64,000 bases of DNA from an uncultured Pseudomonadales bacterium. GTDB lineage: Bacteria; Patescibacteriota; Microgenomatia; UBA1400; PJMF01. A program made the translations under genes and the position numbers. Below the pieces are notes generated by a model that was given only the letters and a program-made list of their open reading frames with translations, had not been told where the DNA came from and searched no databases. Location of the stretch: contig CAZHLX010000001.1 of assembly GCA_964533345.1 (NCBI GenBank), positions 1,292 to 65,291 of the forward strand, written 5' to 3'. Below are positions 19,721 through 24,634 of the stretch, one piece after another (within the stretch, counting starts at the first letter, position 1; every line of letters begins with the position of its first letter).

Positions 19721-20737
19721 ATGAATGATATATATTATGCTGTCGCACATCGGTCTCAAGAGGAGATTGACTCCTTTAAAACGAGATATGAAGACTTTGA
19801 TGAAGGGGTAATTACTCCCATCTTCAAAAAAGATCTCAACCTAACAGTTAAGAGTATTCGTCAATCAGAGTCGTGGGGATCATCCCACGTAATCTATTAC
19901 GTCCAAACACAGGAGAGAGACAAAGAGTTAGTTTTCAGGGCTAATTTAGGAAAAAATCCATCTCCCGAGAGAGTGATGCTGGTTGAGAAGCTAGTTACCG
20001 ACCAGGTAGCTGAAACTGGAGTGCCAACCAATCGGGTTCTGCATGTCGACATTAGCCGAAAAGATTATCCTTTTGATTATCAGATTCAAGAGAAGATTCT
20101 CGGCAATGACTTGGAAGACCATTTCAGTAGTACCAAAGAGGAATATGACCAGATGAGTTATGAGCTAGGGGTAATGATTGGTCAACTGAGTGAGCTGACA
20201 TATGATAAATTTGGAAAATTTGATGAACAGGCTATAGAGAATGGAGTTCTTCAAGGCACAAAAGACACTTTCTATGATTATCTTGTGACTTGCTTGGAGA
20301 GCGACCTTGATTACTTAAGAACAGCAAACATCCTCTCTAAAGATCAAACTGATCAAGTAATAAAAATCTTTGCAGACCATCAAGAAATTGTGAATTTAGA
20401 AAAAGGATCTTTAGTTCATCATGACTTAGCCGATCACAACATCATGTTTATGGATAATAGAATCACTGCTTTGTTTGATTGGGAAGCTTGTGTAGTAGGG
20501 GATCCAGTTCTGGACCTAGCCTCCTGTCCAACTTGGAGAACACATTTTCCTCGAAAGGAAAGGTTATTAGCTGGCTTTCAATCAGTGAGAGATCTTCCGA
20601 GTAATTTTCAAGAAAAATGGGATCTATATACACTTCGGACCATGTTATGGAAGATGGTGTATGCCATTCGAATGGATATAGTGACTGATGCTAGGGTTGA
20701 GAAGTTTAAGACTGCTCTAGAACCATTTAGCCTTTAA
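19721..20737 (+). CDS. APH-fold (aminoglycoside/choline-kinase-like) phosphotransferase
   Basis: Catalytic loop LVHHDLADHNIMF (HxDxxxxN) and FDWEACVVGDPVLDLA (the DxE/DFG equivalent). Confidence 0.7.
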   Translation: MNDIYYAVAHRSQEEIDSFKTRYEDFDEGVITPIFKKDLNLTVKSIRQSESWGSSHVIYYVQTQERDKELVFRANLGKNPSPERVMLVEKLVTDQVAETGVPTNRVLHVDISRKDYPFDYQIQEKILGNDLEDHFSSTKEEYDQMSYELGVMIGQLSELTYDKFGKFDEQAIENGVLQGTKDTFYDYLVTCLESDLDYLRTANILSKDQTDQVIKIFADHQEIVNLEKGSLVHHDLADHNIMFMDNRITALFDWEACVVGDPVLDLASCPTWRTHFPRKERLLAGFQSVRDLPSNFQEKWDLYTLRTMLWKMVYAIRMDIVTDARVEKFKTALEPFSL

Positions 20738-22121
20738 GGCGTTCCACTGCTTCTTTAAATTGATTTCCACGGTCAACATAATCTTCAAAGTTGTTGAAGC
20801 TGGCAGCTCCAGGGGAAAGAAGAATCACATCCCCTTTTTCTGCATGTCTATAGGCATGATAGACAGCTTCTTGTATATCAGAGAATTCTTCAATCGAGGC
20901 ACGGAGTTCATTGCTGGGGTTGAGTAGGTTTATCTCAGCTAGCAATCTACCTCCGGTAGGAGGTAGAAGAGAAAGAGCTTTGACATTTTGATCGATTATT
21001 TCTTTAGCTAGCTCTTTATACTCTTGTTGTCTTTCATAGCCACCGGCAATAAGGATGACTGGTTCATCCTTGAAGGTGTGTAGAGCTGCAAGAGTTGCTT
21101 CAGGAACAGTCGAGATCGAGTCATTGTAGTACTTGGCTCCGTTGATTTCGGCAACAAATTCCAACCTATGAGCTAGAGACTTAAATGACTTAACCGCTTT
21201 GGTAATTTTTTCATCACTCAAATCTAGTTTTTGGCCGATGATGATGGCAGGCATGACGTTATAAAGATTGTGCTCACCCAAGAGCTTGGTATTTTTAGCA
21301 ATCTTTATTAGTTCTTTGTCTTTAAGCGAGTAATTGATTGGAGAGGCTTGGCTAAGTTTGGCTAGTTTGGGAGCGGTATCTGAGTCTTTGTTAACGATAA
21401 TGGTGTCTTTTTTTGTTTGAAAACGTGCGATTTGAGTTTTAGCCTGGAAGTATTGTTCAAAGTCATCATAGTAATCGAGATGTTCAGAGACAATATCCTG
21501 GATGACGGCAATATTTGGGCTAGATTTGAGTTCAGCGAGCTGATGACAAGATAACTCAAGAACAAAAAAGCTTTGTTTCTGATTCTTATTTTTATTCCAC
21601 TCTAACCAGATGTCGATGGCTGCTCTGCCAATATTTCCTCCAATATATGACTCAAACTTATTTTTCTCTAATAGATGATGAATTACAGACGTAGTAGTGC
21701 TTTTACCCTTGGTACCAGTAATGCCAATAGTGATGAGTTCTGACTTTTTATCAAGTGAATTCTGTTCTTTGACTAGGTCAAAGAATAGTTGAGTATTCGA
21801 GCTGACTTGGGAGCCAGCATCGATGATCTTGCGGACAATAGGATGGGAAACAGGAATGCCTGGGGTTTTGAAGAGCATGCTATTTCTCAGCTCGTCTTGA
21901 GAGATCTCTGTTAGAGAAGTAGTAAACTGAGTTTGTGAGTTCTCCTCAATGAGCTCGGTCCAGACTTTATGTAGCTCCGGGAGAGGTCTTTCATCGATAA
22001 GAATAAAGTTGTTGTTAGGAAGTCTAGAACGCAAGAAACGATAGGTGGAGAGGCCCTCTCTGCCGAGGCCAAAAATAATGATTTGATACTCAGCGAGTTG
22101 TTTTAAAACTTTTGATTGCAT
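20727..22121 (-). CDS. murD: UDP-N-acetylmuramoyl-L-alanine--glutamate ligase (MurD family). D- versus L-Glu specificity is not decidable here.
   Basis: IIIFGLGREGLS (Rossmann N-domain), the Mur ligase P-loop GITGTKGKSTT, and the C-terminal ..LLSPGAASFNNFEDYVDRGNQF. Confidence 0.85.
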   Translation of the reverse strand: MQSKVLKQLAEYQIIIFGLGREGLSTYRFLRSRLPNNNFILIDERPLPELHKVWTELIEENSQTQFTTSLTEISQDELRNSMLFKTPGIPVSHPIVRKIIDAGSQVSSNTQLFFDLVKEQNSLDKKSELITIGITGTKGKSTTTSVIHHLLEKNKFESYIGGNIGRAAIDIWLEWNKNKNQKQSFFVLELSCHQLAELKSSPNIAVIQDIVSEHLDYYDDFEQYFQAKTQIARFQTKKDTIIVNKDSDTAPKLAKLSQASPINYSLKDKELIKIAKNTKLLGEHNLYNVMPAIIIGQKLDLSDEKITKAVKSFKSLAHRLEFVAEINGAKYYNDSISTVPEATLAALHTFKDEPVILIAGGYERQQEYKELAKEIIDQNVKALSLLPPTGGRLLAEINLLNPSNELRASIEEFSDIQEAVYHAYRHAEKGDVILLSPGAASFNNFEDYVDRGNQFKEAVERLKG

Positions 22122-23613
22122 CTTGAATCATCGCCTCCAGCTTAGCGGGTAATTGATGTTGAGAGTTCCATCCTTGCAGAACCTTCTGGGATCGTTTCTC
22201 CAAATTTTGTTCATGCTTGATAACTCTATCCCACACCAGCTGTAAGAGTATGGGTAGTTTATCATGATTTTCTTTAGCTTTTTCAATAGATAGGTAAAAG
22301 GCAGCTGTGCTTTCTTCGTGAGTTCCGACGCATTCAAATGGCTTAGCCTCAGATTTTCCAAGTAATGCCATGGCCTCTTCTATCAGGTCCTCATTTTCAA
22401 AGAGATTCTGTCCAAAAATATCAAGGATCTCATCTTTGGATACAAAGGGATAAAAGCTGACAAAGGCAAATAGACACTTAGGACACTCTCCGCACCAAGA
22501 GTTAGTCTTCTGACCACGGTTACAACTTCTGAAAACAGCAGTGTATTGATCAAATTGGGGACAGTTAAGGAAAAACTGACTGATTTGAATTTCATAAAGA
22601 GGGCGAAGTAGGGAAAAATAGGCCGGTTCTGTTTGGTCAGGGACAAGAGAGTTATCCTCAAGATATTGGTTGAACTTCTGCTCAAACTCATAGGTCTTGG
22701 AGTACTGATGATTCACAGTAACTCCATGATAGACGGCATTGCCTTCATTTGAGCTGCGTTCATTAGAGATAACTACACTGCGGTGGCCAAAGATGAGCCC
22801 AGCAAAACGACTCAAAAATCCTAGATAAGCTGAAAATGGTGTGTGGCCATTCAAATAGCCTTTTTTATTGAGTTCTAAGAGAGTAGGGTCAATAACTCTT
22901 CTGGATACGATGACGCGTTTGGGGTGAGCTATTTTAGAAATCTGATCCATAGCTGGGGTGGGGTTGAGCATGAAAGCATCATGCTTGGTATGTTTCTGAT
23001 CAAAGAAACATAGGGTTAGGCTTGAATCTTTACCTCCACCGATGGGGACCAGATAATCGGACTCTATCTTTGGATAGGAGATATCCTCTGGGAGCCTCTT
23101 TTCTGGGACTTCAACTTTCCAGCTAACAAAATTTTGTTGAGTAAAGTCGATCTTATTAACATAGAAATACTCGCCCATACCATTGATGAGTAAGTCATTC
23201 CACCAGGCTATTTGTTCTGAATTTAAGTATCCAGCCTGAATAATAATCTCTGGAGAAGCAGTAGCTTTCCAGTAGCTAGGTATTTCTGCCAATCCTAGAT
23301 GAAATACCCAGGTATCCCTTAAGACTGGGTTAATAGCTTCCCACTGTTTAGCAGAGACGCTTTCTAGGGTTACTGTAGGGTGAAACTCAATTCCGGGTTC
23401 TACTTTAAAATTGAAAGTTAGTTTTAACCCAGCTTCAGTAATTTCTGCACGATAAGAATCATAGATAAACCGTGGATGTTGGTCTCTTAGTTCTGTCAAA
23501 GTCATACGTTGGCTATTATACGCAAAAGCTGGAGAAATGTGGGTGGTAGATTGCAATGGGATGGCTTTGTTCTTTAAAGATGATTTTTTGATTAAAAACA
23601 CATGTTTTATCAA
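22090..23613 (-). CDS. PP-loop ATP-pyrophosphatase-like protein, candidate MurL-type UDP-MurNAc-L-Ala-L-Glu epimerase. The start is 23613 or ATG 23505.
   Basis: PP-loop-like PIGGGKDSSLTL (SGGxDS variant). Cys cluster CNRGQKTNSWCGECPKC. The 3' end overlaps the murD start by 32 nt. The functional call is an inference from motif plus context. Confidence 0.45.
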   Translation of the reverse strand: MIKHVFLIKKSSLKNKAIPLQSTTHISPAFAYNSQRMTLTELRDQHPRFIYDSYRAEITEAGLKLTFNFKVEPGIEFHPTVTLESVSAKQWEAINPVLRDTWVFHLGLAEIPSYWKATASPEIIIQAGYLNSEQIAWWNDLLINGMGEYFYVNKIDFTQQNFVSWKVEVPEKRLPEDISYPKIESDYLVPIGGGKDSSLTLCFFDQKHTKHDAFMLNPTPAMDQISKIAHPKRVIVSRRVIDPTLLELNKKGYLNGHTPFSAYLGFLSRFAGLIFGHRSVVISNERSSNEGNAVYHGVTVNHQYSKTYEFEQKFNQYLEDNSLVPDQTEPAYFSLLRPLYEIQISQFFLNCPQFDQYTAVFRSCNRGQKTNSWCGECPKCLFAFVSFYPFVSKDEILDIFGQNLFENEDLIEEAMALLGKSEAKPFECVGTHEESTAAFYLSIEKAKENHDKLPILLQLVWDRVIKHEQNLEKRSQKVLQGWNSQHQLPAKLEAMIQDAIKSFKTTR

Positions 23614-23842
23614 GTCAAATTGTGTTCGAAAAATATAAAAAGGAGTTTATTTATTTAGTTAAAACTAGTTGTTTAATCCAAGCTTTGGGTTTTCATAGGG
23701 TGGCTGAGTTGGGTGTAAGTGTAAAATTTGAGTTTGGGTTTTAGCGCTCACCCGAAGAAATAGCGAACTAGGTGGGTTTGGACGAAATTGAAGATAATGT
23801 TATGATTTTAATAGGAATCTTTTTGGGTTTTTACTCACTCCC

Positions 23843-24634
23843 ATGAAGGCATTTTATGGGGAGCAACTAATGAAAAATACCGATAACACAAGCCTTCTTT
23901 TTGATTTAAGCATTTTTAGCAGTGAAAAGACTGCTTTGCTAAGTGAGTTGGAGAAGTGGCTTCAGCAGGCTGCTGGTTTGAAAGTTATTTATACTCCCAA
24001 TCCCGAACAAATAGTCCAAACTCGAGGTAACAGCTCTTTTCAAGCGGCTTTGAAAAAGGCTGATTTGTTACTGCCCGACGGTGTGGGATTAGTGATGGCA
24101 GCTAAGTTTTTAAGTCTTTTTGGTAAAGCAAAACCATTGTCTGAGCGTATTGCGGGAGTAGAAGTAGTGGCAGATTTATTAGAAATTGCTCTTAGGCAGC
24201 AGTTAGAAGTACTGGTGATTGGAGGAAGAGGCTATAGCCCTAGGGACTATTTTGCTTATAAAGGAGCAAAGATAAACTGGCTCCCAGGTTTTGAAGATAT
24301 TCAGCATCCTACTAGAGGAGAGAAGAGCAAGCTTAATAAGAAGATTGCCAAGCTCAAACCAGATCTGGTGTTCGTTGCCTTAGGTGCTCCTGATCAAGAG
24401 TTGTGGATTGAGGAGAATAGAGATCTCTTGAGTAAGAATAAAGTAAGACTAGCGATGGCTGTAGGAGGAAGCTTTGATTATTTACTGGGGAAAGTTCCCA
24501 GAGCTCCTTACTGGTTTAGAAAACTCGGCCTCGAGTGGCTTTTCCGTCTAATAATGGAACCATGGAGATTCAAAAGACAACTCCGGTTAGTCACATTTAT
24601 GAATCTGACTATTCGCAAGGCTTTTAAAAATTGA
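23843..24634 (+). CDS. WecB/TagA/CpsF family (GT26) glycosyltransferase
   Basis: IYTPNPEQIV, LLLPDGVGLV, VALGAPDQELW, VGGSFDYL and LGLEWLFRL are the conserved TagA-family blocks. Confidence 0.8.
   Translation: MKAFYGEQLMKNTDNTSLLFDLSIFSSEKTALLSELEKWLQQAAGLKVIYTPNPEQIVQTRGNSSFQAALKKADLLLPDGVGLVMAAKFLSLFGKAKPLSERIAGVEVVADLLEIALRQQLEVLVIGGRGYSPRDYFAYKGAKINWLPGFEDIQHPTRGEKSKLNKKIAKLKPDLVFVALGAPDQELWIEENRDLLSKNKVRLAMAVGGSFDYLLGKVPRAPYWFRKLGLEWLFRLIMEPWRFKRQLRLVTFMNLTIRKAFKN

Follow-up and report, generated by a model that had tools for sequence, protein, structure and literature searches.

We suggest that an ultrasmall bacterium of the Patescibacteria produces the D-glutamate of its peptidoglycan by a working pair of MurD2 and MurL, which very probably replaces glutamate racemase in this organism. 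Both genes lie next to each other in the window, that is, the whole stretch of 64,000 nucleotides that was analyzed. The MurD2/MurL pathway was reportedly described by Feng et al. in 2017 in Xanthomonas oryzae. In the proposed route the ligase MurD (464 amino acids, MurD2-type) would attach L-glutamate, and not D-glutamate, to UDP-MurNAc-L-Ala. MurL (∼471 amino acids) would then use ATP at its QueC-like PP-loop and adenylate the alpha-carboxylate of the terminal L-glutamate with release of pyrophosphate (PPi). This activation would acidify the alpha-proton of L-glutamate, and the epimerized product would pass to MurE, MurF, MraY, and MurG, whose genes lie in other parts of the genome, so that the murL–murD pair would substitute for glutamate racemase. 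The first-pass annotation of this DNA had proposed the same order of steps, ligation of L-glutamate and then epimerization, and the proposal is supported by the profile match of MurL, by the specificity residues of MurD and its position in the tree, by the lack of detectable murI and Dat genes, and by the PP-loop fold of MurL.

Gene organization

Positions refer to the whole window, and both genes are on the minus strand. Residues of MurL are numbered according to the 471-amino-acid form unless stated otherwise.

22090..23613, minus strand: open reading frame (ORF) of the murL homolog, 507 amino acids from a TTG, as drawn by the first-pass annotation
22090–23505, minus strand: probable murL coding sequence, 471 amino acids from a predicted start at ATG 23505–23503
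20727..22121, minus strand: murD, MurD2-type, 464 amino acids, ATG 22121–22119
22090..22138, minus strand: putative murL–murD coupling junction with GGAGG 22134–22138, murD ATG 22119–22121, and murL TGA 22090–22092

The murL TGA stop (22090–22092) lies 32 nt within the murD frame, and the ORF listing confirmed that the frame of 507 amino acids ends at this place. The ORF itself is real, and its length was probably over-extended in the first drawing. MurL homologs start near residue 37–43 of the 507-amino-acid form and close relatives have 465–475 amino acids; therefore the ATG at 23505–23503 (Met37) is the likely start. The public gene call for the window protein (P0121) has 503 amino acids. 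The Shine–Dalgarno sequence GGAGG at 22134–22138 is found 12 nt 5′ of the murD ATG, inside the end of the murL coding region. Overlap and placement of this sequence fit a translational coupling from murL to murD, in line with the probable co-translation that had been assumed before, and overlapping or abutting frames in the order murL–murD are seen again in related loci.

MurL family assignment

The predicted protein matches the NCBIfam model of MurL, NF041275, from end to end (E 2.6e-71, 240.4 bits): residues 48–497 in the 507-amino-acid numbering are aligned to positions 11–444 of the 447 positions of the model. A rerun of the search at the level of the genome gave E 4.9e-72 for the same protein. 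Alignment to the MurL profile had been recommended as a check of the assignment to this family, and the full-length match supports the assignment, though it stays under the 700-bit cutoff of the model (see below). In addition, precomputed annotation places the Pfam domains PF26298 and PF26299 on the window protein and on all 120 relatives among the matches listed. The top homologs of two queries (120 listed) are all from the Candidate Phyla Radiation (CPR) or metagenomic. JGI labels relatives with 68–70% identity as UDP-N-acetyl-alpha-D-muramoyl-L-alanyl-L-glutamate epimerase (MurL), whereas the NCBI label of these relatives is hypothetical. A general Pfam scan of the murL ORF, carried out with a set without PF26298 and PF26299, returned only sub-threshold matches to DUF6395 and QueC (E 0.052), and a sequence search of the PDB with the window MurL found no genuine relative, only nanobody noise at E 0.06.

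Some MurL homologs of Peregrinibacteria (P0028, P0039, P0060, P0084, P0113) are called "endonuclease domain-containing protein" by NCBI. P0113 (612 amino acids) does bear the additional domains PF04480/PF18741, and the name may have spread from a fusion of this kind to plain MurL proteins.

Fold and conserved motifs of MurL

An alignment of 89 MurL sequences was used for the analysis of conservation and as input of AlphaFold (AF2). The resulting model has a mean local confidence (pLDDT) of 96.5 and a predicted template modeling score (pTM) of 0.94. When compared to the PDB with Foldseek the top matches are all PP-loop enzymes, namely QatC, QueC, and Cap9 (probability 1.00), followed by TtuA, ArgG (argininosuccinate synthetase), MnmA, GuaA (GMP synthetase), and NadE. 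The template modeling (TM) score to QueC (PDB 2pg3, 3bl5) is 0.64–0.65, normalized to the target, and hhalign aligned the 89-sequence alignment with Escherichia coli QueC (E 4.5e-5) over 194 columns, comprising residues 3–230 of 231 of QueC. This match spans the core only, about 195–230 of the 471 residues, with 14–21% identity. According to the model the core of MurL is a QueC-like PP-loop fold, and QueC is its nearest fold. Three motifs deserve attention:

23023..23043, minus strand: PP-loop motif IGGGKDS (SGGxDS variant), between strand 149–154 and helix 159–170 of the model
22474..22524, minus strand: cysteine cluster C328-x9-C338-x2-C341-x2-C344, putative QueC-type zinc site, invariant in the 89 sequences
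22324..22344, minus strand: KPFECVG motif with Cys392, candidate catalytic residue, without counterpart in QueC

Two of these motifs had been quoted earlier, and both are found in the ORF: PIGGGKDSSLTL, and CNRGQKTNSWCGECPKC at 22474–22524. Their interpretation as a PP-loop-type motif and a cysteine cluster is upheld by the fold matches and by the profile alignment to E. coli QueC. G157, G158, and D160 are invariant in the 89 sequences, GGGKDS is invariant or nearly so, and this stretch aligns on SGGQDS of E. coli QueC with the first serine changed to glycine. When aligned with E. coli QueC, the four invariant cysteines C328, C338, C341, and C344 fall on its four cluster cysteines (TC...GCGHCAAC), which we take to be the zinc ligands of QueC. 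By this alignment the cluster of MurL would bind zinc; by analogy to TtuA it may also be a [4Fe-4S] site. In the third motif K388, P389, C392, and G394 are invariant, and outside the QueC core further invariant residues are found in NGHxP, E249/S251, and NHQxSK. Given its conservation, Cys392 could serve as base or as transient thioester nucleophile for the inversion.

QueC adenylates a carboxylate. This activity matches the chemistry published for MurL, which converts ATP to AMP, works unidirectionally from the L- to the D-form, and has been proposed to adenylate the alpha-carboxyl group (PMC8788868, PMC5808125). The modeled PP-loop fold is consistent with a reaction yielding AMP and PPi, and the window MurL is expected from its sequence to be an epimerase.

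As the best structural matches are QatC, QueC, and Cap9, it could be argued that the ORF encodes an enzyme of queuosine-type metabolism or of anti-phage defense with murD as an incidental neighbor. The weak Pfam match to QueC and the name QueC given by JGI to one relative (P0089) point in the same direction. However, the similarity to QueC is confined to the core whereas the MurL model is matched over the whole protein, so that an assignment to another PP-loop family (QueC-, LarE-, or Dph6-like) is not what we find. Moreover, no QatA/B/D or CBASS genes are present near the locus, and murL is adjacent or fused to murD in 84 of the 92 loci compared across several phyla (see below). We therefore regard this explanation as highly improbable.

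A probable ligase of the MurD2 type

The ligase of the window exceeds the cutoff of TIGR01087 (328.8 bits, cutoff 212), and the genome has no second murD (single tblastn match). We aligned it with E. coli MurD, 77 other MurL-linked MurDs, and 20 MurDs from genomes of this phylum that encode MurI; the numbering of the E. coli MurD structure was checked against 13 residues from the literature. The positions of interest are:

21483..21485, minus strand: codon of MurD Glu213; Asp182 in E. coli, Glu197 in X. oryzae MurD2
21030..21032, minus strand: codon of MurD Arg364; Lys348 in E. coli, Arg358 in X. oryzae MurD2
Position 319 of E. coli MurD: Lys in E. coli, not stated for X. oryzae MurD2, Ile336 in the window
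Position 414 of E. coli MurD: Ala in E. coli, Pro433 in X. oryzae MurD2, Ala440 in the window
Position 416 of E. coli MurD: Leu in E. coli, Phe435 in X. oryzae MurD2, Phe442 in the window

The double mutant E197D/R358K of X. oryzae MurD2 uses D-glutamate, E. coli MurD gains acceptance of L-glutamate by the exchange K319T, and the exchanges P433A and F435L leave the specificity of X. oryzae MurD2 unchanged (PMC8788868). Column 348 is the best discriminator in the whole MurD alignment, with arginine in 77 of the 78 MurL-linked proteins and lysine in all 20 proteins from MurI genomes. At position 414 the MurL-linked MurDs have alanine (38), proline (18), or serine (18). In the maximum likelihood tree a branch with 99% support parts E. 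coli MurD and the 20 MurDs of MurI genomes from 76 MurL-linked MurDs including the one of the window, and the label MurL-linked or canonical changes only twice on the tree as compared to 19.3 times when shuffled. Both types of ligase occur side by side in G711, a 2.5-Mb metagenome-assembled genome (MAG) labeled Actinomycetota (L135, L138, also L027), which encodes both MurL and MurI and has murD in two copies: the MurD linked to MurL reads E/L/R/P/F, the full MurD2 signature, and the other one reads D/K/K/A/M and is canonical. The earlier suggestion to examine whether the window MurD groups with MurD2 is answered by Glu213, Arg364, and its place on the MurL-linked side of the 99% split, which mark it as a probable MurD2-type ligase. 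Judged from these residues it would be specific for L-glutamate.

D-glutamate supply of the host

The host genome comprises 905 kb in 80 contigs with a completeness of 86.8% and a contamination of 5.6%. Contig C16 encodes ftsI, murE, murC, mraY, ftsW, and murG, and contig C9 encodes ddl and murF. With these genes the host makes the pentapeptide precursor and therefore needs D-glutamate. Nevertheless, within the assembled 86.8% neither murI (TIGR00067) nor a class-IV aminotransferase/Dat (PF01063) is matched, and the Asp/Glu racemase family PF01177 gave only a match of 11.5 bits, so that none was accepted. Among 14 genomes serving as positive controls the same models matched in 11 (TIGR00067), 13 (PF01063), and 14 (PF01177). 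The presumption that this organism may lack glutamate racemase, and the search for murI and D-amino-acid transaminase recommended with it, have thus been borne out for the part of the genome at hand.

In the dcw-like cluster of contig C16 (C16:2477–11917, outside the window) with the order ftsI-murE-murC-...-mraY-ftsW-murG no murD is found at its usual mraY–ftsW place; ∼2.5 kb between murC and mraY were left out of this reading.

Mutual exclusion of MurL and MurI

MurL is encoded in 41 of 301 genomes sampled across the phylum (∼14%) and in 55 of 401 genomes of a second sample. Among the same 301 genomes MurI is found in 95 above the cutoff and in about 115 at E ≤ 1e-30. None of the 41 MurL-positive genomes has a true MurI in addition, compared to 95–115 of the remaining 260 (Fisher p 7e-8 and 8e-10), and 38 of these 41 genomes are at least 90% complete. 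A relative from the same family as the host (G083, 100% complete) likewise has MurL and no MurI. In other lineages ten genomes with MurL were selected by way of named loci, and none of them has MurI above the cutoff; among them are Pseudobutyrivibrio xylanivorans DSM 14809, a Marinifilum, a Ruminococcus flavefaciens, a MAG of the Bdellovibrionota, and a complete TM6 genome.

These results bear on the explanation that a murI gene is located in the unsequenced ∼13% of the genome and that murL–murD is redundant. The completeness of 86.8% leaves room for such a gene, and G711 shows that both routes can coexist. However, the canonical route would need a canonical MurD and the sole murD here is MurD2-type; moreover neither the 41 MurL-positive genomes of the phylum, most of them nearly complete, nor G083 have MurI. 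A hidden murI is thus very unlikely, and replacement of the racemase by the MurD2/MurL pair is preferred.

Matches to the MurI model in the MurL-positive genomes G002, G052, G145, G229, and G244 (29–47 bits, covering model positions ∼42–192) were not accepted as MurI, since MurI-positive genomes (G215, G188, G078, G202, G157) have a match of this kind as a separate second one. This paralog of 230–260 amino acids is, by its sequence, probably another Asp/Glu-racemase-like enzyme.

Neither MurL nor a strong MurI match is found in about 145 of the 301 Patescibacteria genomes. In these genomes peptidoglycan might be absent, D-glutamate might be scavenged, or another enzyme might be used.

In the genome scan relatives of MurL are present in at least 585 species-level genomes, and among the matches listed are many Lachnospiraceae, Oscillospiraceae, and Bacteroidales of gut and rumen as well as the isolate P. 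xylanivorans DSM 14809. The MAG records L016, L019, L033, L035, L048, and L079, with titles naming Vitreimonas, Enterobacteriaceae, or Pseudomonadales, look like mislabeled Patescibacteria: the "Vitreimonas" genome (1.5 Mb) is classed in the phylum of the window, and in the tree of MurD the other such records are placed between sequences of CPR bacteria.

Synteny and fusion of murL and murD

We compared 92 MurL loci. Of these, 12 come from the sample of the phylum and 80 from named genomes, and they belong to several phyla. The arrangements are:

murL followed by murD, adjacent or overlapping: 71 of 92 loci
murL and murD fused into one ORF, MurL being N-terminal: 6 of 92 loci
murL and murD on the same strand with a larger gap: 5 of 92 loci
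murD followed by murL, adjacent: 1 of 92 loci
murL and murD convergent: 1 of 92 loci
no murD in the stretch examined, some of which stop at a contig end: 8 of 92 loci

Taking all arrangements together, murD accompanies murL in 84 of the 92 loci. The single-polypeptide MurL–MurD fusions are encoded at:

L005:1435–4017
L011:253–2688
L052:2956–5616
L067:2992–5712
L074:2962–5628
L079:2917–5688

These fusions of 812–906 amino acids are found in Patescibacteria, in a complete TM6/Dependentiae genome (L067), in a Lachnospirales MAG, and in a Bacteroidota MAG. Lengths of ORFs of 812–939 amino acids suggest a fusion for about 9 of the 41 murL genes in the sample of the phylum. In the MurI-positive Patescibacteria G230, G215, G106, G200, G009, G005, and G148 it is murI that lies directly beside murD. 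As murL occupies this slot of murI, it looks like an in situ non-orthologous displacement of murI, and the displacement looks like it went along with a change of the MurD type.

Weighing of the assignment

Several observations weigh against a MurD2/MurL pair in the window. With 240 bits the window MurL falls short of the 700-bit equivalog cutoff of NF041275, and the MurL homologs of CPR bacteria are just 30–35% identical to each other, so that the function of MurL is extrapolated over a long distance. In the ligase, Ala440 is found where MurD2 has P433, though P433A left the specificity unchanged. Glu at position 182 is also present in 8 of the 20 MurI-linked MurDs. The MurD of Streptococcus has arginine at position 348 and yet uses D-glutamate (PMC8788868); our alignment with 3lk7 also has Arg at this position, so that Arg348 alone is insufficient. 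The alignments of MurL and MurD comprise no validated sequences from X. oryzae, Micromonospora, or Salinispora, and the residue identities were taken from publications. In one genome (G134; L010/L136, C3:26558–29190) MurL occurs with a sole MurD which is canonical (Asp182/Lys348) and whose gene runs convergently to murL; this genome gave no match accepted as MurI, though four congeners (genus g55) have MurI. Finally, with a completeness of 86.8% murI could sit in the missing part of the host genome. Concerning the first point, the model NF041275 is an equivalog model named for and tuned to Xanthomonadales, and its 700-bit cutoff is reached in none of the Patescibacteria genomes of the two samples (301 and 401 genomes; best match 456 bits). 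In 401 genomes from the phylum of G712, a MAG labeled Proteobacteria, a single MurL match was obtained, and it did not reach equivalog level either. The missed cutoff is a limit to automatic naming and not to homology.

A further explanation is that the MurL-like protein is a QueC-type carboxylate adenylator which modifies the muropeptide in another way, for example by amidation or a different substitution of a glutamate carboxylate, and that MurD uses D-glutamate scavenged from a host or from the surroundings. Patescibacteria typically live as episymbionts and have a reduced biosynthesis, which would suit scavenging, and the ∼145 genomes of the phylum without MurL or strong MurI match imply another supply of D-glutamate. 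Other modifications would be conceivable as the chemistry of QueC ends in the formation of an amide and a nitrile and as the score of MurL is under the equivalog cutoff. Scavenging, however, leaves unexplained the strict exclusion of MurL and MurI, the switch from lysine to arginine at the specificity position of MurL-linked MurDs, and the pattern of the two paralogs in G711, and for an amidation there is no glutaminase or amidotransferase partner at the locus. This explanation appears unlikely to us, and we favor an epimerase that acts on the product of an L-glutamate ligase.

Flanking sequences

A scan of the region 20400–23900 for promoters and terminators gave results no better than shuffled sequence. 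Since the scan is at chance level, the TATAAT at 23515–23520 upstream of Met37 is no evidence of a promoter. The 3′ end of murD has an overlap of 11 nt (20727–20737) with the 3′ end of a convergent gene for an APH-family phosphotransferase, located at 19721–20737 on the plus strand (PF01636, E 1.9e-19).

Significance

The locus is a divergent new member of the known MurD2/MurL system, and Pfam, IMG, and UniRef already cover such proteins. Reviews from 2018 and 2021 state that MurL is without any known conserved domain and describe its mechanism as unresolved, and they mention MurL orthologs of low similarity in a fungus, in cyanobacteria, and in an amoeba (PMC8788868, PMC5808125). The pathway was said to be limited to relatively few genera, namely Xanthomonas, Stenotrophomonas, and a few others (PMC8788868, 2021). 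With at least 585 species-level genomes and 14% of the phylum the distribution of MurD2/MurL is wider than stated in the literature searched. We found no paper tying MurL to CPR/Patescibacteria, to QueC, or to a PP-loop; subscription journals were mostly outside the search, which makes this weak evidence. One paper on the D-glutamate supply of a CPR bacterium was found, dealing with MurI of Saccharimonas aalborgensis.

Taken together, MurD2/MurL could be the D-glutamate route of about one seventh of the Patescibacteria, of many Lachnospiraceae, Oscillospiraceae, and Bacteroidales, and of Dependentiae (TM6) and Bdellovibrionota, sometimes as a single fusion, and MurL could be a QueC-derived adenylator with a tetracysteine metal site in which the cysteine of KPFECVG carries out the inversion. 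That all of this is correct and also undescribed is a tentative claim, to which we give slightly less than an even chance. If it holds true, an enzyme reported to be without known domains would obtain its first frame for structure and mechanism. The QueC-like fold, the putative metal site, and the invariant cysteine lead to testable hypotheses for the mechanism of MurL, and the natural MurL–MurD2 fusions are ready-made constructs for studies of substrate channeling. The route would explain normal peptidoglycan in a CPR bacterium without murI, and reconstructions scoring such genomes as D-glutamate auxotrophic or cell-wall deficient would be wrong. The pathway has also been put forward as a target for narrow-spectrum antibiotics, as it was thought to be confined to Xanthomonas, Stenotrophomonas, and few genera (PMC8788868). 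This rationale is touched by the large number of species-level genomes with MurL relatives, common gut Bacillota and Bacteroidota included.

Comparison with known systems

The system of X. oryzae, MurL (XOO_1319) and MurD2 (XOO_1320), is among the closest known: in both cases a protein of unknown domain and a MurD-like ligase form a two-gene cassette, MurL is homologous to the profile over its full length, the two specificity positions of MurD are occupied by Glu and Arg and the position of L416 by Phe, and the genome has neither murI nor Dat. Nevertheless, the window MurL is very divergent (240 bits vs. the 700-bit cutoff) and its host, a member of the Patescibacteria with a genome of ∼0.9 Mb, belongs to a lineage outside the published distribution. 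The window MurD has Ala instead of Pro433, both genes overlap by 32 nt, and some relatives are fused. The enzymes of X. oryzae were assayed, whereas the clade of the window is known from its genes alone.

With QueC (7-cyano-7-deazaguanine synthase; PDB 2pg3, 3bl5) MurL shares the SGGxDS-type PP-loop core and the spacing and positions of the four-cysteine cluster. In contrast to QueC, which has about 220–230 amino acids, MurL has an additional N-terminal domain of ∼145 amino acids and a C-terminal helical domain of ∼120 amino acids as well as the invariant KPFECVG, NGHxP, and NHQxSK, and the identity is low (14–21%). The substrates differ, and so does the predicted outcome, being epimerization and hydrolysis in MurL and formation of an amide and a nitrile in QueC.

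QatC of the QatABCD defense system (PDB 9y01/9y02) and Cap9 (PDB 9nto) resemble MurL as PP-loop enzymes derived from QueC that have gained further domains. Over the whole length, the best Foldseek match to MurL is QatC (E 1e-5, TM 0.40–0.44), but only the core superposes and the full-length root mean square deviation is 11 Å. QatC and Cap9 have a defense context and a chemistry of protein or nucleobase conjugation, whereas the locus of the window is without defense partners.

In the canonical pathway of other Patescibacteria murI is often found beside murD, in the slot which is taken by murL here. Canonical MurI racemizes free glutamate without ATP and is accompanied by a MurD with Lys348. On the contrary, the window has no MurI and a MurD with arginine at this position, and the predicted epimerization takes place at the level of the peptide and at the expense of ATP.

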